From: a virus | Lineage: Duplodnaviria > Caudoviricetes | Virus record (IMG/VR): IMGVR_UViG_3300031992_004562 | Location: 47,626 to 111,625 of that record | Strand: one strand, 5' to 3' | Length of the DNA stretch: 64,000 nt | Shown: positions 5,666 through 48,049 of the stretch, in pieces | Position numbering within the stretch: the first letter of the stretch is position 1 | Layout of the letters: each line of letters begins with the position of its first letter | Made by a program: the position numbers and the translations under genes | Notes under the pieces: model-generated | The model's input: only the letters and a program-made list of their open reading frames with translations | The model's database searches: none | Told to the model about the DNA's origin: nothing

Positions 5666-6235
5666 ATGAATAATAAACATTTATACAATAAAATTATAAA
5701 TGCTATAAATGAAAGTGTCTAGAATGCATTAAATGAATATAACAAATATGAAAATTCTGATCATCATCGTGGTGGCAATATTCATGATTTAAAATTTCTT
5801 GCATAGGTACTAACTAATAAATATGGTTATAAAGCATATCCTGTATCATCTACACTTGGAAAACCATATTAGTTAATTTTAAGAAGAGAAAGTGGAGTAA
5901 GAAAAAATGTTTATGTTCAACAACGAAAAAAGGGAACAACTTCAGGAAATATTGCATTAAGACTTAAAAAATATGGTGAAACATTATCATTATTAGACAA
6001 TCCAGAAATTAATGAAATTTGTTTGATATGCCCGCCTGTAATGAATTATGATCCAAGAGGTGAAGTAGTTGATAATACTAAAGCTTGTTTTTTTGAAAAA
6101 GATTATTTAAAAGATAAAGTTGAACATGGGGAAATTCCAATAACAAAAACACGAGATGGTGAAATGTTAATGCTTTCAGAAAAATGGATAAAAGAAAATG
6201 CAAAACAAATTATTTCATATAAATATATACGATAA
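5666..6235 (+). CDS. Hypothetical protein with variant leader B (MNNKHLYNKIINAINESVQNALNE), code 15
   Basis: ATG at 5666, three in-frame TAG, joins ORF 6023..6235; AATAAATA upstream. Confidence 0.75.
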
Positions 6236-6260
6236 AGAGAGTTTAAAAACTCTCTTTTTA
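6235..6260. terminator. Bidirectional terminator
   Basis: AAAGAGAGTTT/AAACTCTCTTT inverted repeat between convergent genes. Confidence 0.7.
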
Positions 6261-6263
6261 TTT

Positions 6264-7115
6264 TTATAAATTTATTACTGGACGAACGCTAAAACCAATA
6301 TAACGATTGTTAGTGAATACACGGATATTGTCTGAATAGAAATGCAAGTACCAAGCGTAATTGGGAACGCCTAAATAAAGACTTGAAGACCACAAGTTAC
6401 AGCCAGAACCAATGCCGTAGATATCAGAATCATTATGATAACCAGCTGCAGGAATAAACAATTGATTTCCATTCTTTCCTTTAAATATCCTGCCATTTAA
6501 TCCTTGAATTCCTCCATCAACTTTTAGATTATGCTTTATTTTATTAGGATTATAATTATTAACCCAATAACTATGAGTATAATTTATTAATTCTATATAC
6601 TGTTCTTCAGTTGGAATATGAAATTTAAAATTATGTAATTTTTTATTCTAGTAAGCAGCATCATCTTCAGGCAGTAATTCTGTTAAATTATCAGTAAATC
6701 CCCAAGTTTTTGTTATTTGATTATATCCCTTTTGAGGATTATTACAATATTTTGTTAAACAATCTTTTTCAGATAAATCTGTATAGTGTTCTGCATATTT
6801 ATATGTAGACCAACTGAATTCTGGTTTATTTGGTTTCAATTCGCCCCATGCATAATATCCACCATACCAATCTTCGGCTTTAGACAACTAATTCTAATTA
6901 ACTCCTAAATTATATTTGCACCATAAAGTGCCTGAAGGCAAACCTAAATCAACAACTTCTTTTATTAAATCATATTTCTATTTAATAACATCTTCTGCAT
7001 TAATGACATCATTATGTTGAGATAATGAACTAATTGGTTCATTATCTTCAAAATCATCAAGTGCAAGTTTAATGCCTCTATTTACAGCTTCTAATATCTG
7101 TTTATAATTTTTCAT
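6264..7115 (-). CDS. Leader A + DUF1566/FISUMP-like (C-type lectin-fold) protein, code 15; candidate DGR target
   Basis: MKNYKQILEAVNRGIKLALDDFED..VDLGLPSGTLW..YYAWGE..FIPAAG..GFSVRPV; continuous 283 aa with TAG=Q. Confidence 0.85.
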
Positions 7116-7183
7116 AATTCAATATATTTATTAAACAAAATAACAATTTATTCATATAATTTAAAAATAATAGAGTGCTTTAA

Positions 7184-8143
7184 ATGAAAATATTACAACC
7201 AAGTTTTTAGATATTAGAACAAGAACCAGGATTAAAAGGTATTTATAAAGCAATTGAATATCCTGGACGTATTTGCTATAATTCAACAGATAAAATAACA
7301 GAAGATTCTGCCGAAGAATTTGTTCATAATAGGTTAGAAGCATCTAATCATGGTGCACCTATGGAACATGGCGCAGTTTATTTGTATATTACTAGAAATG
7401 TTGATTATGATGAATGGCTTTCCCCTAGTCCAGAATATGGCAAGTATGATGAACTTTTAGAATTTTATAGTGATAACAAATATTCAAAAGTTGAAGAACG
7501 AGTATGTGTAGATTTAAAAGATCATTTATATATTTCGACTAATTATAGAGTTTTATTTGAGAATAATAGATTAGATGACTTAAAATATTTATGTGAACCA
7601 ACAGAATATCACCATAAAAGAGTAACTGTTAAATTCACTTGCAATATTGGAGTATCTCGTGAATTTAATAGACATCGTGCGGATTCTATTAATGAGGAGT
7701 CAACAAGATATTGTAATTATTCAAAAGATAAGTATGGTAATGAGATTTCTATAATTCAAAATAACAATAAACTGAGCAGATTTGATTTTAGTGCAGGAGT
7801 TAGAGAGTTTATTGATTATTGCAAGATAATTGTAGATAATGATAAAGAATATAATAACCCAAGAAATGGTTTTGGAGAAATAGATTATTGGCTATTTTCT
7901 AATGAAGCAGCTGAATGGTCATATATTGGTTTGACACAATACTGTGGCTGGAATGCACAAGATGCAAGAGATGTATTACCATTGGATACCAAATCTATAT
8001 TGGTTCATAGTGCATTTATAGATGATTGGAAGCATTTCTTCGATTTGAGAGCCATTGGAACTACTGGTGCACCTCATCCTCAAGCAAAAGAATTAGCATC
8101 GCCATTAATGGAAGAATTTAAGAAAAGAAATTTAATTGATTAA
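7184..8143 (+). CDS. thyX: FAD-dependent thymidylate synthase ThyX, code 15 (TAG at codon 9)
   Basis: GRICYNS, HGAPMEHG, SREFNRHR, EESTRYCNY, ARDVLP; N-terminus restored by reading TAG 7208-7210. Confidence 0.93.
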
Positions 8144-10659: not shown

Positions 10660-11187
10660 ATGGATAAAGATGACGAAATTTTTTATAATCCTGACAAAGC
10701 AGGAGAAATATTTACTAAGCCTCATATAGTAAATTATGAAACTGTTCATCTTAAAGGCGATTTATTTCATTATGATAAACCATTCTGTGGAAGAGTATAT
10801 GATAAAAATGCAATGAAGCGTGCAATTAATAAATTTAGAAAACAATTAAAGATGGGTGAATTAAATCATAAACCAATGTTTGGTAGTTTTAATAAAGATG
10901 CTAAAACCATTGAGGATTTTATAGGTACTGCTTTTGATGTTGGTCTTGAACATATTTCCCATAGAATTAATGATGTATATAATAAAGGTGATAAAGCATA
11001 TGTAGATTTAGATATTTTAAATACACCTGCAGGTGATGATATTAAAAAATTATTAGATGCTGGTATGAAATTACATGCATCACCTGAACTTATTGTAAAT
11101 GGAGATAAAGTTATACAATTGGTTTCTATTGGTCTTTATCCAGATACAATAAATAATCAAAATTTACCACCATTAGAAAAAGTATGA
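10660..11187 (+). CDS. T4 gp21-like prohead protease homolog (degenerate)
   Basis: GRVYD..MGELNH..ISHRI..ILNTPAGDDIKKLLDAG; the SSRG motif is replaced by ASPE. Confidence 0.7.
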   Translation: MDKDDEIFYNPDKAGEIFTKPHIVNYETVHLKGDLFHYDKPFCGRVYDKNAMKRAINKFRKQLKMGELNHKPMFGSFNKDAKTIEDFIGTAFDVGLEHISHRINDVYNKGDKAYVDLDILNTPAGDDIKKLLDAGMKLHASPELIVNGDKVIQLVSIGLYPDTINNQNLPPLEKV

Positions 11188-17147: not shown

Positions 17148-18026
17148 ATGGCAAATTATTATCAAAAAGAAGATAAAACAGAGTTTTTTAGAACACCTGA
17201 TTGGATAGTTGAAAAGTGTTATGAAATGATTCCTAATGCAAAAACAATTTTAGATCCATGCGCAGGTGATTGTGGTCTTGAAGATTTTACTAGAGATGTT
17301 GATTACACTTTATTAGATTTAAATCCAAGAAGTTCAGTTATTGAAAAAGCTGATTTTTTAAATTGGACATCTAATAGAAAATTTGATGCAGCAATTTGCA
17401 ATCCACCTTTTGGTTTAAAAAATGAATTTATTGAACATCTTTTTGAATTTACAAATAATATAATTCTTATTGCACCATTAAAATCTGTTATTAATGAATG
17501 GTTCACTAATATAAAAGATATTTACTTAGATTGGCGAATTCCATTTTTTGGATTTGGAATATTAACAAGTGTTGCTATATTTCATTTAACAAAAGAATCT
17601 AATGGAATGACAAGAGATGAAATAAAACAAAAATATCTTTTACCACCAACCACAGGATTAGATGTTATTACAGTATGGGAACCTCGCCATTTAAAACTTG
17701 ACAAATGGGGTTTATATGTTCCAATTACAAAGGCAAACATTGTACGTAATAATGAATTATTAAGAGAAGAATATATTTTTGAACCAGGAGATGATTCTAT
17801 TTTTATTGCAAAGAAAGCATCAATCAATAATCAAGCAGGTGATAGAGTTTATAGACATGTAATATATACAGACACTCGAGAAGATGCATTAGCAATTATT
17901 CAAAAATATAAAGAAAATGACGAATATATAAGAAATTATGCATATCAATATGGAAATAATATTTTAGATTTAAGATATGTTCCAGCATTGATAGATGATA
18001 TATATAAAATTCATAGTTTATTTTAA
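17148..18026 (+). CDS. N6-adenine DNA methyltransferase
   Basis: FRTP, ILDPCAGDCG (motif I), CNPPF (motif IV). Confidence 0.85.
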   Translation: MANYYQKEDKTEFFRTPDWIVEKCYEMIPNAKTILDPCAGDCGLEDFTRDVDYTLLDLNPRSSVIEKADFLNWTSNRKFDAAICNPPFGLKNEFIEHLFEFTNNIILIAPLKSVINEWFTNIKDIYLDWRIPFFGFGILTSVAIFHLTKESNGMTRDEIKQKYLLPPTTGLDVITVWEPRHLKLDKWGLYVPITKANIVRNNELLREEYIFEPGDDSIFIAKKASINNQAGDRVYRHVIYTDTREDALAIIQKYKENDEYIRNYAYQYGNNILDLRYVPALIDDIYKIHSLF

Positions 18027-18634: not shown

Positions 18635-19726
18635 TCAAAAATCTTCAACATCATCAAGAGCCAATTGAATTCCTCTATTAACGGCTTCTAATAATGAATT
18701 TTCAAATTTTAAATTTAATATAAAGCTTTCAGATAATTTTTCTATATTTTCTTTTGAAAATGCTACAAATTTTTCAACAATTGAATTTACAAAATTTCTA
18801 TCAAGCCATGGATATTTTTCATATAAATATGTTGTGTTTATCCAGGTAAATGGCTATTTTTCGCCTGATGGTGTTATTGCAGTTCCTGTCATATATAATA
18901 TATTTTCAAGTGCAAATTCATTTTCAGATTTAGATTTATCTAATAATTGTTGTAAATCTGCAAGAAATTCTTTTTCGTCATCTGCAATTTCCTATATTGC
19001 CTCTTTAACTCTATGAACAGAATATTCTGTTCTTAAAAATCTTAATACATAATTATTAAGTTTTTCAGCTGTACCATCTTCATCTATAAAATACCATTCA
19101 GGCCTATCAGCTAATGATAAATCTGTAAATTGTCTAAATGCCATTTTATTTGGATCATTTGGATCTCTAAATAAACCACTTTGACCAATAGATTGTGTAT
19201 ATTTTTTAGTATGTGTTCTATTTTCATCTTTTGTTCTAGATGCATTTAAACCTTGATATTCTGGTTTACGTCTCCAATCATTTTCTGGATAATCGGTTTC
19301 AGCTTTGCCAAAACCATGTCTTAGACGAATATTCTATTCTTCATCACCCCATTCATGATATTTTGATAGAAATCTGCCATTTTGCATCCAACGGATAACT
19401 GTACGGCTAATCTTAATAATATGTACATCACCTTCAATATCCATTGGTGCAGAATTTCTTTGTCCTGCCAACACCTATGAATATTTTTCAGAATCTTTAA
19501 AAGATTGTAAACGACTTTTAAATCTTGGAGAATTTTCTAATTCTTTTCCAGAAAGATATCCAGTTAGTTTTTTATCATTTTCAATATTAACTTTCTTTCT
19601 TGAACGAGGCCCATATGATAATGCCCCATCATTTAAATAACCAATTGACACAAATAAATCATTTGGCAGTATGTTTTTTGTTAAAAATGGAATTATATCT
19701 TTACCAACTAATATACGTTCTTTCAT
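18635..19726 (-). CDS. Hypothetical protein with leader-A motif at its C-terminus, code 15
   Basis: 363 aa continuous frame with four TAG, ending LLEAVNRGIQLALDDVEDF-TGA. Confidence 0.82.
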
Positions 19727-19782: not shown

Positions 19783-20736
19783 ATGGAAATAATTAATAAG
19801 AAAATAATAGAATCTGTTAATAGAGGCATATAGTTGGCATTAGATGATTTTGAAGATATTGATAATATATCATCTAATAAAAATGACATAGTGTCTTCTA
19901 GTAACTTTGATGAATATGTCAAATTTAGAAACATTATTAAAAAGATTTTAAATCATGATAGAGATCTTCCAAGAAAATTAGATGAAATTCGTGTATATAA
20001 AGAAATGATTAAATTACATGATGATTATGGTTTTCTTTATAAAGTTAATACATTAGATGAATTAAAATCTATTATTGAAAGATTTATAGATATTTGGCCA
20101 GTTGCCACAAATAATTTTAACTGGCTAGATGTTTCTTCGTTAACAAGTTTGCAATATGCATTTAGTTCAGCATCTATAAGAGATAAAATTGGCAAAGTAA
20201 TTATAGATGAATGGAATGTTTCTAATGTAAAAGATATTCAATTTATGGCATGGCAATGCGCATATTTTGAAGCAGATTTATCTAAATGGAATGTATCTAA
20301 TCTTGAATATGCAGGCGGTGCATTTTTAGGATGTAAAAAATTTAATTCAGACTTATCTAATTGGAATGTTTCAAATTTATATGATGCATCTTCAATGTTT
20401 TTATATTGTGATAATTTTAATTCTGATTTATCTAGATGGAATGTTTCTAATTTAGTAGATGCATCTTAGATGTTTAAAGAATGCAAAACATTTAATTCAG
20501 ATTTATCTAATTGGGATGTTAGTAATGTGCAAAATGCTAATATGATGTTTTATGATTGTGAAGCTTTTAATTAGGATTTGTCTAAATGGAATTTAGCAAA
20601 ATGCAATAATGGAAATAGAGATTAGTGGTTTAGATAGGTATTTGCATATACACCAATGGAACATGAATATGATTTATATCCAGATAAATTATTAACTGAT
20701 AATATGAGAATATAGGCTACAATGAAAAAGAAATGA
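19783..20736 (+). CDS. Leader A + DUF285/BspA-like leucine-rich repeat protein, code 15
   Basis: MEIINKKIIESVNRGI(Q)LALDDFED; FNSDLSNWNVSNL repeats; FN(TAG)DLSKWN = FNQDLSKWN. Confidence 0.88.
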
Positions 20737-21473
20737 AAAAATTTAATAAACATATATTAGAAGCAGTAAATAGAGGTATCTAGTTAGCTTTAGATGATTT
20801 TGAAGATATAGAAGATAATAATACTTTATCTTCAAAAAATGATGTTATAGATAGTGAAGATGTTATTAAAAACAAAATTGATTTATAGAATTTTGTTGAT
20901 CTTGGTCTACCATCTAAAACATTGTGGTATAAAAGAACATTAGGTGAAACTGATAATACTTTTGGTGAATGGTACGCATGGGGAGAAATAAAACCTAAAA
21001 ATGTATATGCTTGGCATAATTACAAATATGCAAAAAGAAATGAAGAGAATTTAACTAAATATTGCAATGATAAAGTTGATGGATATAAAGGATTTACAGA
21101 TAATAAAGAAACTTTAGATTTATGCGATGATATTGCATATTTAACAAATAAACATTTTAGAATTCCTTCAAGTAATGATTTTGAAGAATTATTAGATAAT
21201 TGTAACTATGAATGGATAACTGGTGATACAATTGGAATCATATTTAGGTCAAGAAAGAATGGAAATGAATTATTTTTTCCTGCATCTGGATTTATTAACG
21301 ATTATGGATAGGTTGCAGAACGTGGAAAAACTGGATTATTTTGGGCAAATAATATTTCCAGTGACGCATTGCCAGAATAGGCGTATTGCTTAAGTATTGA
21401 ACAGGCAAGTAATGCAGTTATAATGGCAGATAGATGTTTAGGCTTATAGATTAAACCAATATGGGTATGGTAA
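20733..21473 (+). CDS. Leader A + DUF1566/FISUMP-like protein, code 15
   Basis: MKKFNKHILEAVNRGI(Q)LALDDFED..VDLGLPSKTLW..YAWGE..FFPASG; ATGA overlap with previous gene. Confidence 0.87.
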
Positions 21474-22258
21474 AGAATAATAAAATATTAGAAGCCATTA
21501 ATAGAGGTATATAGTTGGCACTTGATGATTTTGAAGATATAGAGAATAATAATTCTGTATCTCAATTAAGTGATGTCATAAATAGTGATGATGTAATTAA
21601 AAATAAGATAGAATTTAATAAATTCTTTGTTGATATGGGATTTCCATCTGGAACTATATGGGCTAAATACAATTTAGGTGTTAATCCATATAGAGGACTA
21701 TTTATACCTCAATCTTATTATGGTAATTATTATGCATGGGGCGAAACTAAACCAAAAAATAATTATGATTGGAGAAATTATAAATTCATTTCTAGTATAA
21801 GTCCTCTTAAATTTAAAAAATATAATGGTAACAGAAAAGATAGAGAAACTCTTGATTTGCGTGATGATGCGGCATTTGTTAATAACCCATATTCAAATAT
21901 CAATGTTAGAGTGTGCCTTCCAACACCTGAACAAATTATTGAATTACAAATACATACAGATAGAGAACTTGTACATAATTACAAAGGTATTGCAGGATTA
22001 AATGTTGTAATTTTAACATCTAGATGCAATGGTAAAAAATTGATGTTTCCTCTTGGAGGATTTAAAGATGAAGAACAAACGAAATATGTTGGTGAAACTG
22101 GTTTTATAATGTCAAAATATATGGATAAACAATATAATCATAGGGCATATGGAATTAGTTTTTAGATTAAATACACTGGAGGAAAACATTTGGATTTTAA
22201 ATTTGATTATATTGGGAAAAAGACTGGTGTAAATGTAAGACCAGTAATAATGAAATAA
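21467..22258 (+). CDS. Leader A + DUF1566/FISUMP-like protein, code 15
   Basis: MVKNNKILEAINRGI(Q)LALDDFED..VDMGFPSGTIW..YAWGE..GVNVRPV. Confidence 0.87.
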
Positions 22259-25930: not shown

Positions 25931-26003
25931 TGCCCCATTGCATAATGGCAGTGCGCATGACTCTAAATCATGGTCAGTCTCGGTTCGATTCCGAGTGGGG
26001 CTG
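25931..26003 (+). tRNA. Amber suppressor tRNA (anticodon CUA), probably Gln-charged; CCA not encoded
   Basis: Cloverleaf: GCCCCA/TGGGGC acceptor, GCAT/GTGC D-arm, CATGA-CTCTAAA-TCATG anticodon arm, CTCGG-TTCGATT-CCGAG T-arm, G73. Confidence 0.93.
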
Positions 26004-26052
26004 CAAATAAAACAGATAAATTTTTATATTTATCTGTTTTAATTTTTAATAA

Positions 26053-30189: not shown

Positions 30190-30981
30190 TTATTTCATTA
30201 AAACTGGTCTTACAAAAACACCATGTTCTCTTGCTATTGTATCAATACGTATTCTATTATCTTTTTCAATTTGCATACAATAATATAACCAATCAAACGC
30301 TTCAGGATATATATAACTTGTCATATAATATCCATAATTTAAATTTGTTAAGTTTACATTAATTGAATTTTCATTCTAAAGATACCCATGTATTGGAAAT
30401 ATTATTTCATTTCCATTTATTTTAGAGGTTAATTTACAAACATATAAATTTAAAACACCATTGTATGTATAATGAAAAGATTTTATTGTATTGGCTAATA
30501 ACTCTTCATATTGATCTATAGTTGGTACACAAATATTTACATGATATTTTTTATATAAATTGGAATTATATGCTGGGTCATCGCATAATTCTAATTTCAT
30601 TAATTTATCATCTTTATTATATTTAATATAATGATCTATAATATTTCTATTATTAATAGTTCGTTTTTCTAAAAATTTATACTATGTTGTTATTTTAGGT
30701 TTTAATTCACCAAATGCATAATAATCTCCATACCAATCAGCAGCTATTTCTAAATTATTAGGATTAACACCAAGATTATATTTTGACCACAACGTTTTAG
30801 ATGGAAGACCTAAATCGACAAAATTTTTCATTAACTCTATTTTATCATTGATGACATCATTTACATCTATAACATCATTACTCTAAGATATAGAATTATT
30901 ATCTTCCATATCTTGATAATCATCAAGTGCCAACTAAATACCTCTATTGACTGCCTCTAATATTTGTTTGTAATTTTGCAT
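30190..30981 (-). CDS. Leader A + DUF1566/FISUMP-like protein, code 15
   Basis: MQNYKQILEAVNRGI(Q)LALDDYQD..VDLGLPSKTLW..YYAFGE..GVFVRPV; 263 aa. Confidence 0.87.
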
Positions 30982-34784: not shown

Positions 34785-35783
34785 ATGAAAAGATTTAATA
34801 AGCAAATATTAGAAGCAATCAATAGGGGTGTTTAGTTGGCACTTGATGATTTTGATTATAATGAAGATATAACAAAATCTAAAACTGATATAATTAATAC
34901 TGAAGAATATGCATTTAGTATTATAAACACATTATATAAAAAACTAACATCTGAAATATTAACTGTTTAGGAATTAGACCGTTTGGTACAATATTATCAA
35001 ATAACAAAGCAAAAATATAAAGTTTATTCTAGACAAGAGCTAAAAAGAATTATTGATTATGTAATTGGTGTTTATCAATCTGGTGATTTTGTTAAAGGAC
35101 TTAATCCTGATATAAAAACATTAAATTGGATAGATGTTTCTGAAGTAAAATATATGGATGAACTATTTAAAGGATTATAGTTTACATCAGATATTTCTGA
35201 ATGGGATGTTTCTAATGTTTTAACAATGTCAAATATGTTTGAAAACGCTACATTCACTTCAGACATTTCAAAATGGAATGTTTCTAAAGTTACAACAATG
35301 TATGGAATGTTTTCAGCATGTAATTTTGAAAGTGAATTATCTGATTGGGATGTTTCCCATGTAACTGATATGGGACATATGTTTTTCATTTCACCATTTA
35401 ATGGAGATATTTCAAAATGGAATGTTAAAAATGTAACTAATATGCCATATATGTTTTATGCAGCTGTATATTTTAATCAACCAATTGGAAAATGGAATAT
35501 GTCCAAAGTTAATAATATTGATGGTATGTTTAATATGGCTAGTAGTTTTAATTAGGATATTTCTAAATGGAATATTTCTAATGTTAAATCTTCTGAGCTT
35601 GCGTTTAGCAAATCTGGATTTGATTAGGATTTATCTAAATGGGATGGCGGAAATTTATCAATGACTACATTTAAAGGCAGTAAGATTTCTTCAAATCATT
35701 TACCAAAGTTTTGGCAAGAAAATGAAATGAATTTAGATGGCAAAAGAATATTAAATACATATTTACCAAAAGATTGGAATTAA
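34785..35783 (+). CDS. Leader A + DUF285/BspA-like LRR protein, code 15
   Basis: MKRFNKQILEAINRGV(Q)LALDDFD; FNGDISKWNVKNV repeats; FN(TAG)DISKW. Confidence 0.88.
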
Positions 35784-36502
35784 TGAAAAATTATAATAAA
35801 ATATTAGAAGCCGTTCATCGTGGTATTTAGTTAGCACTCGATGATTTTGAAGATATAGAAGATAATAATTCTATATTTTAGAGTAATGATGTCATTGATA
35901 CAGATGATTATATAGATGATAGAGTTACATATAATAAATTATTAGAAAAGTTTTTTGATTAGATGAGTGATAGCTTAGTTATAAAAGTATCTAAAGATGA
36001 TTTAAAAAAACTTGCAAATTTATCCAAAAATCTTGGTATGAAATTTAAAGTTGAAGATAATAGATTTTTACAAGATATAATTAAAACTGTTTGTAGAATA
36101 GATAAGTCTGCAAATTTAAATTGGATTGACACATCAGAAGTAACCAATTTTGAAAATCTATTTAATATGACACTATTTCATGGTGATATTTCAGAATGGG
36201 ATACACATAATGTCAAAAACATGTATTCATGCTTTGCTTATTCTCAATTCAATGGCGATATATCAAGATGGGATGTATCAAATGTTGAAAATATGAATTG
36301 GATGTTTTAGGGTTCTTGGTTTAACAAACCAATTGAAAATTGGAATGTAGCTAAAGTAAAAAGTATGAATGGAATGTTTAGTGAATCGCATTTTAATTAG
36401 AATATATCTAAATGGAATGTTGCAAATTGTAAAGGTTATATAAAATTTAATAATAAAAGCACATTAAAAAAATCTAATATACCACCAAAATTTAGAAAAT
36501 GA
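35783..36502 (+). CDS. Leader A + DUF285/BspA-like LRR protein, code 15
   Basis: MKNYNKILEAVHRGI(Q)LALDDFED; FNGDISRWDVSNV; TAATG coupling to previous gene. Confidence 0.88.
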
Positions 36503-46864: not shown

Positions 46865-48049
46865 ATGAGCAAAGAGTTGTTTATGAAAACTAATAAAATT
46901 TTGTTATGTCTTGATTGGAGTAATATCCTATTTAGATCATTATTCATAAATCAACTATATGGCGCTAAAACAACTTATGATAATATAGAAGATTGCCAAT
47001 CTTTTATTTATAAGTTTGCAACAGACGTCTGTTCAATTATTAATATTTTTAAACCAAACAATGTTATTTTATTAACAGATTCTCAACATGCTTGGCGAAA
47101 AGATGTTCTTCCAGGTGAAGATGGCTATAAGTCTAATCGTCAACGTCAAGATGGTGTTAATTGGGATAATATTTTTAAATGCTCAGACGATCTAAAGGAA
47201 ATATTTCATAAAGCTGGTTGCCATGTAGCTGAGTATGAACATAGTGAAGCTGATGATATGGCTGCATTATGTAAAGAAGTGGTATTTGAAAAGTACCATG
47301 ACTATAATATTATTATTGTATCTGCTGATGCTGATTTACGTCAATTGATTGATTTCGATCCATTAACGAATCAATATTGCGCAGTTTATAATACAATAGT
47401 TAAGGGTAAAACCGGCAAACGATTCCTTTATATTACTCAAGAAATGAAAGATTGGATTGATAAAAATGAAGATGTTGATATTTTCTTTAGTAATATTGAT
47501 GAATCAAAACAATACATTAAAGATATTGTTGCACAAAATACCAAAATTGATATTGATATTGAAAATCCAAATGAAGTTCTTCTTCATAAAATTTTCTGTG
47601 GTGATGATGGAGATTGTGTTCCAAGTTTTTATAGTTGGATTCATAATGGTAAAACTGTTAGAATTACTCCAGCTAAAGAAAGAAAAATTAGAGAAACACT
47701 TGGAATTAAAACATTAGGTGATTTAATTCAAGCAAAAGACAATTTAAAACCTTTAATTGAAACCGTTGCTAAAAAGGAAGTAAATGATATTGATATTAAT
47801 GAGCGTTTACAACGGCAAAGAGTTTTAGTTGAATTGAATTCCAAGCTTTTTCCTGAAAACATTCAATCTTATAAGGAAACCATTGACTACATGATTCAAA
47901 TGGAACATGATGGATGTTTTGCCAATCTAAAGGCTGCTAATATATTAAAAGGCACAGAATATGAGAATTCTAATAAACCTAAAGCTATAACTGCAAGTGT
48001 ATTTAAAGATATGGAAAAATATGGATTAACAACAATTCCAATTTTCTAA
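46865..48049 (+). CDS. 5'-3' exonuclease / T4 RNase H-like
   Basis: LCLDWSN, YKSNR, EADD, SADADLRQL, GDDGDCVP. Confidence 0.88.
   Translation: MSKELFMKTNKILLCLDWSNILFRSLFINQLYGAKTTYDNIEDCQSFIYKFATDVCSIINIFKPNNVILLTDSQHAWRKDVLPGEDGYKSNRQRQDGVNWDNIFKCSDDLKEIFHKAGCHVAEYEHSEADDMAALCKEVVFEKYHDYNIIIVSADADLRQLIDFDPLTNQYCAVYNTIVKGKTGKRFLYITQEMKDWIDKNEDVDIFFSNIDESKQYIKDIVAQNTKIDIDIENPNEVLLHKIFCGDDGDCVPSFYSWIHNGKTVRITPAKERKIRETLGIKTLGDLIQAKDNLKPLIETVAKKEVNDIDINERLQRQRVLVELNSKLFPENIQSYKETIDYMIQMEHDGCFANLKAANILKGTEYENSNKPKAITASVFKDMEKYGLTTIPIF

Follow-up and report, generated by a model that had tools for sequence, protein, structure and literature searches.

A retroelement-style codon signature, without detected retroelement parts, in a lectin-fold gene family of TAG-recoded ruminant-gut megaphages

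How did one gene of an AT-rich phage come to carry, near its 3′ end, a block of codons composed so differently from the rest of its sequence, and is that block still being rewritten? The question is raised by a 64,000-nucleotide stretch of viral DNA (Duplodnaviria; Caudoviricetes), here called the window, which forms the final part (positions 47,626 to 111,625) of the 111,625-bp IMG/VR record IMGVR_UViG_3300031992_004562, whose GC content is ~27%. The gene in question, hereafter the focal gene, runs on the minus strand from 7115 to 6264 and encodes a conserved N-terminal leader, leader A, followed by a domain modelled with a C-type lectin (CLec) fold. An earlier note, made from the letters of the window, had proposed that the 3′ end of this gene is the remote target of a diversity-generating retroelement (DGR) located elsewhere, and that a library of genes tagged with the same leader may be actively hypermutated. 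In prokaryotes and their viruses, DGRs are the only natural system known for targeted hypermutation of proteins. Our analysis favors, at a probability of about 0.45, an orphan DGR-style variable cassette, that is, a region written by a DGR whose generator is absent, lost or rarely active, and now spread by recombination.

The codon signature that had been noticed was recovered exactly, with one correction to the gene itself, whose frame contains four in-frame TAG codons and stays open only with TAG as a sense codon. In the 45 codons at 6422-6288 (codons 232-276), the third position is C in 15, T in 22, G in 4 and A in 4, the 15 C-ending codons being the same as those listed before, and the encoded peptide is the C-terminal WSSS..AWYL.F...R..GFSVRPV segment as described. 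The block lies within a slightly longer variable region at 6285..6440. The contrast with the rest of the gene and with three paralogs, which had been described as more A/T-ending, also stood up to counting: among the other 239 codons of the focal gene, 10 end in C and 93 in A (Fisher's test, block versus rest of gene, P = 1.1e-7 for C and 5e-5 for A), and 13 of its last 50 codons end in C, compared to 0-4 in the leader-bearing paralogs, three full-length ones in the window and one upstream of it. Across the whole record, denser 45-codon blocks occur in only three open-reading frames (ORFs) of at least 100 aa, all of which are antisense shadows of longer genes. The focal gene is the only leader-bearing gene of the record with the signature, a result at odds with the idea of a tagged library under hypermutation.

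The signature is shared with a large family in related phages. A search with residues 160-283 returned 530 proteins, the best of them 60-72% identical and all with the leader, and the best 120 homologs of this segment are all phage-type metagenome proteins that carry the same leader and have no Pfam annotation; several members co-occur on single contigs (491 kb and 275 kb). The family has a body conserved to '...GKNGNQLFIPAAGY', then a segment of ~52 residues with hypervariable positions interspersed among invariant scaffold positions, and the end 'RPVINL'. Among 119 proteins, entropy reaches at least 2 bits in 25 of 52 variable-region columns versus 18 of 225 upstream columns, while K, E, Q, M and W make up 5.7% of residues in the hypervariable columns of the variable region versus 27% in the variable columns upstream. 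The hypervariable codons hold almost solely NNY-type residues (N, Y, D, S, H, C), with Asp, Asn and His common and their single-step neighbors Glu, Lys and Gln rare.

At the DNA level, 31 distinct copies of variable-type genes from related phages were compared, and all 31 have 7-20 C-ending codons among their last 50, versus 0-4 in the non-variable paralogs. Positions 1 and 2 of the hypervariable codons are A-rich and position 3 is nearly always C or T, some columns being ~70% C and others ~95% T. Synonymous choice changes at the boundary of the region as well: Gly is encoded by GGT in 109 of 153 cases inside and by GGA in 104 of 155 upstream, Arg by CGT or CGC in 77 of 89 inside and by AGA in 28 of 35 upstream, and Ala by GCT in 62 of 88 inside and by GCA in 21 of 34 upstream. 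For eight multi-codon amino acids together, A-containing codons account for 34% in the variable region versus 62% upstream (P = 5e-24), and C-ending codons among those for N, D, Y, H, C and F account for 35% versus 5%. Coding-strand A falls from 41.5% upstream to 23.6% in the variable region and GC rises from 26% to ~37%. Avoidance of adenine at fixed residues together with NNY at changeable ones is the logic of a DGR template.

The region ends at a 21-nt 3′ flank, CGTCCAGTAATAAATTTATAA, in which synonymous sites too are conserved in most family members (mean variability 0.03-0.11). It has one copy in the 111-kb record, is AT-rich and is followed by a terminator-like hairpin, and it is a candidate recombination junction or boundary of the IMH (initiation of mutagenic homing) type. 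GC-rich hairpins also follow the stops of three relatives (L015, L016 and L167), the hairpin of L015 and L016 being a conserved one; these were considered as DGR target hairpins and rejected, as T-runs follow them and they are terminator-like. The variable module was also seen on proteins without leader A (L015 9818-10660, the L016 ORF ending at 10969 and the 659-aa L011 ORF ending at 10768), of which L015 has the strongest signature, its last 50 codons including 20 that end in C and 2 that end in A.

Given a signature of this kind, the parts of a DGR were sought in the window's record and in four relatives of 380,519 bp (76% complete), 262,727, 204,228 and 52,713 bp, 1.01 Mb in all, where completeness values, like the ~22% for the window's record, are CheckV estimates. 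The RVT_1 profile, which detected the reverse transcriptase (RT) of Bacteroides phage p00 (Hankyphage) at E = 2e-13 as a control, had no match in the 111-kb record or in eight related IMG/VR records. A phmmer --max search for homologs of the p00 RT in six-frame ORFs of the 1.01 Mb, and of a further 0.5 Mb from assorted related loci, gave only noise. The accessory protein Avd (PF05635) had no match in the five records, and some DGRs lack it. A probably complete 491-kb genome from the European Nucleotide Archive (ENA), the 491,481-bp scaffold ERZ28613555 STEW19-1_SAMEA5383844_METAG-scaffold_1, carries at least five variable-type genes; the only parts of it inspected were the 10 kb to either side of four such genes, and these contained no RVT_1 gene.

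Template searches were equally empty. The earlier note had suggested that BLAST might reveal a template differing only at adenines beside an RT gene, and in p00 the annotated template and variable repeats do have this form, with 14 mismatches, 14 of 14 at template adenines. BLAST of a variable region against the five records returned only other variable-type gene ends, and an adenine-tolerant scan of the 111-kb record gave only A-rich low-complexity noise. A fast Fourier transform (FFT) scan in which subject adenines were allowed to mismatch, covering all 31 variable regions and both strands of the 1.01 Mb, recovered only the genes themselves. In IMG/VR, the loose pattern CTTNTGGNCTTCNANTCTT gave mostly chance matches and no template among the matches listed, a tighter 17-base core pattern found only known variable-type genes and two chance matches, and no match came from a guessed template pattern in which the variable codons were set to AAY. 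The claim of a DGR located elsewhere therefore finds no counterpart in these records, in which neither RT, nor Avd, nor template repeat was found.

The behavior of the alleles was examined alongside these searches. In one 204-kb record, five variable-type paralogs agree at the third position in 13 of 58 codons, and the five variable regions of the 491-kb genome show 60-78% pairwise third-position agreement, no better than with the window's gene. Paralogs of one genome with agreement this low cannot be copies of one current template, and the proposal that the five regions of the 491-kb genome share one was rejected. Over all pairs, third-position identity is 0.59 in the variable region versus 0.74 upstream, and the two are uncorrelated. 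Of six protein clusters at ≥90% identity, five show fewer variable columns in the variable region than in the remainder of the protein, and one shows about as many; in one example, 2 of 51 variable-region columns vary compared to 63 of 208 elsewhere, and in one cluster 13 of 15 members have one variable sequence on differing N-termini. The clusters show that strains can diverge and still retain the same variable module. Similarly, L006 and L144 share 414 identical upstream bases and differ at one base of the variable region. One allele of this pair has a TAG within the variable region (GGT TAG TCA), where others have TTT or TAT.

The variable region also moves as a block. Identical variable modules occur on different middle modules (P0018/19/20, P0014/16 and P0009/12/15), and a 49-kb contig from sequencing run X4, which follows the window collinearly at 95-98% identity, has 278 unlike letters in place of 6287-6576; the replaced block exceeds the variable region and is bounded by conserved flanks. 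Contigs in three of the four runs (X1, X3, X5) were also observed to join a family gene end to a gene start, 7119 to 6262; such joints indicate that close paralogs form tandem arrays at other places in the phage populations, that of the source sample among them. The Logan contigs break around the focal gene and mix in paralogs; the lower unitig depth (24.8 versus ~32) is not interpretable. With the variable region stable in the ≥90% clusters and exchanged as a unit, active hypermutation of the focal region or of a leader-tagged library is not supported.

The orphan cassette would work as follows. The last ~52 residues of the lectin domain, behind the conserved N-terminal leader, would form a binding face, the diversity of which most likely arose by DGR-type mutagenesis, in which an AAC/AAT-rich template is copied with adenine-specific errors. 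Such mutagenesis would explain the NNC and NNT codons, the near absence of Lys, Glu, Gln, Met and Trp, and the adenine-poor scaffold. The generator would since have been lost, or would act only rarely, in the sampled phages, and the alleles would be inherited stably, passing from one strain or paralog to another when homologous recombination takes place at conserved flanks, upstream at 'YWVNNY...FIPAAGY' and downstream at 'RPVINL-stop'. What stands of the earlier proposal of a DGR-like target is a variable CLec face with an AAY-type codon structure; a DGR acting now is not supported.

The fold of the focal protein fits this picture. AlphaFold2 reached a mean predicted local distance difference test score (pLDDT) of 41 with 37 close relatives and of 93.6 with a wider 136-row alignment, and residues 55-283 are confidently modelled as a C-type-lectin-like domain of the Lcl_C/DUF1566/FISUMP ('CLec2') type. 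Profile scores of the focal protein itself are weak, at E = 2e-4 and 21.9 bits for TIGR02145 (curated cut-off 41.65) and E = 4e-3 and 18 bits for PF07603 (under the cut-off of 34.9); TIGR02145 (FISUMP) is matched by 25 of 37 close relatives, with a best E of 2e-6. A profile built from six paralogs retrieved 28,028 representative proteins, and Pfam Lcl_C was matched in five of six wider homologs checked, in three of them above cut-off. Dockerin domains were seen in two of these six, one of which also has Big_2, suggesting cell-surface proteins of gut or rumen bacteria, and giant proteins with 3-19 copies of the domain in tandem are among the 28,028 representatives of this superfamily. Foldseek of the focal model against the PDB gave nothing significant and a profile search against PDB sequences gave only noise. 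In an exhaustive structural alignment, the match list was almost wholly of the CLec fold, including many animal C-type-lectin-like domains (CTLDs), with the C-terminal domain of Bd2740 (8oks) at Z 7.5, that of Legionella Lcl (8q4e) at Z 7.3 (root-mean-square deviation, rmsd, 2.5 over 103 residues), and the DGR targets Mtd, TvpA and TaqVP at Z 6.0, 5.8 and 5.2. The Z values are themselves middling (<8), and the fold is assigned because the list is consistently CLec.

The fold puts the focal gene in the class known among DGR targets as category d ('CLec2'), which comprises variable regions of the DUF1566/DUF823/Fib_succ_major type such as that of Legionella LdtA, and about half of which are short single-domain proteins (Wu et al. 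2018, PMC5758913). In the same survey, AAC is the most frequent codon of templates, whose adenines lie at codon positions 1 and 2 (PMC5758913). The focal gene resembles this category in its Lcl_C/FISUMP-like domain, its variable region at the extreme C-terminus, its AAY-derived-looking codons, its adenine-poor scaffold and its short protein. It differs in that no template repeat, RT or Avd was found with it, in that a phage leader replaces the lipoprotein or secretion signal, in having an AT-rich 3′ boundary rather than a GC-rich IMH, and in belonging to a family of many, tandem, mosaic genes in a ~0.5-Mb TAG-recoded phage. Mtd of Bordetella phage BPP-1, Treponema TvpA and Thermus TaqVP, all solved structures, share the CLec fold and variable residues in the C-terminal part of the domain, but they are 8-14% identical with middling Z, belong to the Mtd and FGE-sulfatase branches, and each has a demonstrated template and RT. 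The Hankyphage p00 (BK010646) is likewise a phage of gut Bacteroidales with a variable C-terminus in a structural-type protein; unlike the focal gene, it has an adjacent template and an RT, an unrelated scaffold sequence and the standard code. Among solved structures, Lcl and Bdellovibrio Bd2740 come closest (rmsd 2.5-2.8 over 96-103 residues), but they are bacterial surface or adhesion proteins at 10-14% identity and are not known as DGR targets.

The alternative that comes nearest dispenses with a DGR altogether, and ascribes the diversity to diversifying selection over long periods, combined with frequent recombination among the strains and paralogs of a multi-copy lectin family, the codon skew being a by-product of a preference for Tyr, Asn, Asp, Ser, Gly and Cys together with local mutation or gene-conversion bias. 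The mosaic modules, the block replacement and the failure to find DGR parts in 1.01 Mb all agree with it, and the low, backbone-uncorrelated third-position identity of the variable regions is what would be expected of old alleles shuffled onto homogenised backbones. It leaves unexplained, however, why synonymous codons flip to adenine-free ones exactly inside the region, why C-ending codons are enriched there for the same amino acids, and why the residues Asp, Asn and His are frequent but Glu, Lys and Gln scarce; moreover, non-variable paralogs of the same fold freely use K, E, Q and A-ending codons in the equivalent segment. We consider this explanation doubtful.

Several observations weigh against a cassette whose generator has fallen silent, and most of them bear on a second alternative, in which a live DGR elsewhere in the ~0.5-Mb phage genome periodically rewrites 6285-6440 by mutagenic retrohoming. 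The window's record is ~22% complete and the best relative 76%, which leaves room for a DGR cassette in unsampled DNA, and the 491-kb genome was seen only around four of its variable-type genes. Clustering at 90% identity would itself leave out fully re-diversified alleles, and the run data are assembled Logan contigs rather than reads, which places minority variants in the source sample outside their scope. C-ending codons persist at 35% where the strong AT pressure in the phage should erode a fossil signature, which hints at continued or recent input. Finally, the L001 gene ending at 17648 and its counterpart in L154 differ in eight variable-region codons, all at positions 1 or 2 and none at position 3, with 7 of 9 changed bases involving A, while upstream the two differ mainly at third positions; this pair looks like a recent DGR-style change.

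These points, namely the incomplete record, the persisting C-ending codons and the L001/L154 pair, are why a live DGR was kept in consideration, and the full codon signature and the CLec fold fit it as well as they fit the orphan cassette. DGRs can also act in trans on targets that are not adjacent to them (PMC5758913). Against it stand the lack of RT, Avd and template throughout five records, one of them 76% complete, the lack of an RT near the four genes of the 491-kb genome, the 22-40% of third positions at which five variable regions of that one genome differ, the stability of variable regions in diverged strains, and the single variable-region difference between L006 and L144. On balance, a DGR that is still rewriting the focal gene seems unlikely.

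A further, improbable possibility is adenine-directed, AAY-templated diversification without a phage-encoded DGR, in which a host or co-resident RT and template would act in trans, or a mutagenic mechanism without a recognisable RVT_1 enzyme would operate, the products spreading as cassettes through the tagged family in the ~0.5-Mb recoded phages. Least probable of all is a recent import of an unameliorated 3′ module from a higher-GC donor such as a bacterial FISUMP/DUF1566 gene: the focal module does fit the canonical FISUMP motif better than the paralogs do, its GC is raised, and its CGT, GGT and roughly half C at two-fold sites are what we take to be Bacteroidales-like usage, but the best 120 homologs are all phage-type and leader-bearing, no enrichment of G-ending codons is seen, the flanking sequence is AT-rich and specific to the phages, and a signature found in hundreds of diverged phage alleles would need many transfers.

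The features of the locus are collected in Table 1. The leader, MKNYKQILEAVNRGIKLALDDFED, is charged and predicted to be helical and on inspection of its sequence, made by eye rather than with a signal-peptide predictor, has no hydrophobic stretch, lipobox or signal peptide; the same inspection of the focal protein gave no sign of the lipoprotein or secretion signal that bacterial FISUMP proteins typically carry. Leader A also heads three BspA/DUF285-like 'WNVSNV' repeat proteins in the window, at 19783-20736 (+), 34785-35783 (+) and 35783-36502 (+), and a 363-aa gene at 18635-19726 (-) has a copy of the leader motif at its very C-terminus.

Table 1 Features of the focal gene, its paralogs and the suppressor tRNA (window coordinates)
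Feature	Position	Strand	Basis or remark
Focal gene, 283 aa with TAG = Q	6264..7115	-	TAGs at codons 46, 74, 76, 156
TAG codons of the focal gene	6978-6980, 6894-6896, 6888-6890, 6648-6650	-	read from sequence
N-terminal leader A, ~54 aa, predicted helical	6954..7115	-	tblastn, translations, alignment
Modelled C-type-lectin-like domain, Lcl_C/DUF1566/FISUMP type, residues 55-283	6267..6953	-	AlphaFold2 model, structure matches, profile matches
Variable region, codons 226-277, ~25 hypervariable codons between adenine-poor scaffold codons	6285..6440	-	codon alignment
3′ flank CGTCCAGTAATAAATTTATAA, codons 278-283 and stop	6264..6284	-	nucleotide-level conservation among family members
Hairpin between convergent genes 5666-6235 (+) and 6264-7115 (-)	6234..6257	.	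terminator-like
Leader-A FISUMP-like paralog without signature	20733..21473	+	4 C-ending codons in last 50
Leader-A FISUMP-like paralog without signature	21461..22258	+	1 C-ending codon in last 50
Leader-A FISUMP-like paralog without signature	30190..30981	-	0 C-ending codons in last 50
Suppressor tRNA, anticodon CUA	25931..26004	+	ARAGORN label tRNA-Pyl; needed for the four TAG codons of the focal gene

The recoding on which the focal frame depends extends over the window. About 40 of 66 listed ORFs of at least 120 aa require TAG read-through, which together with the CUA tRNA indicates a TAG-recoded phage, and homologs on ENA contigs match the query in translation only with TAG = Q. The sequencing runs that contain the window DNA are sheep, bovine and goat gut metagenomes, with the source sample (runs X1 and X2) from sheep gut, and contigs of relatives reach 491 kb and carry a T4-type portal gene. 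From the ruminant-gut runs, the recoding and these relatives, the source is taken to be a stop-codon-recoded, T4-like megaphage of ruminant guts. A tblastn search of the focal protein against GenBank phages gave no match.

Some features of the gene and its relatives bear on when and where the protein may be used. An ATAAATA motif lies at 7125-7131, ~10 nt before the focal start codon, and the portal gene of the 491-kb relative is immediately preceded by two genes of the family. This motif, the portal-adjacent genes, the lectin fold and expression via a suppressor tRNA together suggest that the focal protein is probably late and possibly virion-associated, and that it may bind a glycan or surface ligand, presumably one displayed by the host. 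Tandem variable-type lectin genes followed by a small ORF and Portal_T4 were observed at L219 10001-11670 and in L217 (ENA STEW19-1 scaffold_1, ~102.8-104.5 kb). Two further features of this relative, noted at L004 1-4806 and 12976-14220, are a family B DNA polymerase interrupted by intein-like ORFs and a TnpB-like gene (OrfB_IS605), the latter at a distance of 2 kb from a lectin gene of the variable type. Beside the focal gene in the window, the gene at 7361-8143 (+) has a ThyX-like motif (RHR...ESTRY), suggesting a flavin-dependent thymidylate synthase, and its ORF start moves out to 7184 with TAG = Q.

In the library searched, no paper was found that connects DGRs with giant recoded gut phages or with Lak phages. 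The family described here is large, with more than 500 proteins in one search and several copies per ~0.5-Mb genome, and its binding face bears a DGR fingerprint, although the machinery was not found in over 1 Mb of related DNA. If a DGR were found, it would be a phage DGR with many distant targets, which would be unexpected for phages in earlier surveys (PMC5758913). If none exists, the family would demonstrate that DGR-made diversity can outlast its generator and be kept by recombination, and screens for the codon signature would catch 'fossil' targets that RT-anchored searches overlook. Either way, these lectin-fold proteins are good candidates for the host- or glycan-recognition proteins of ruminant-gut megaphages.

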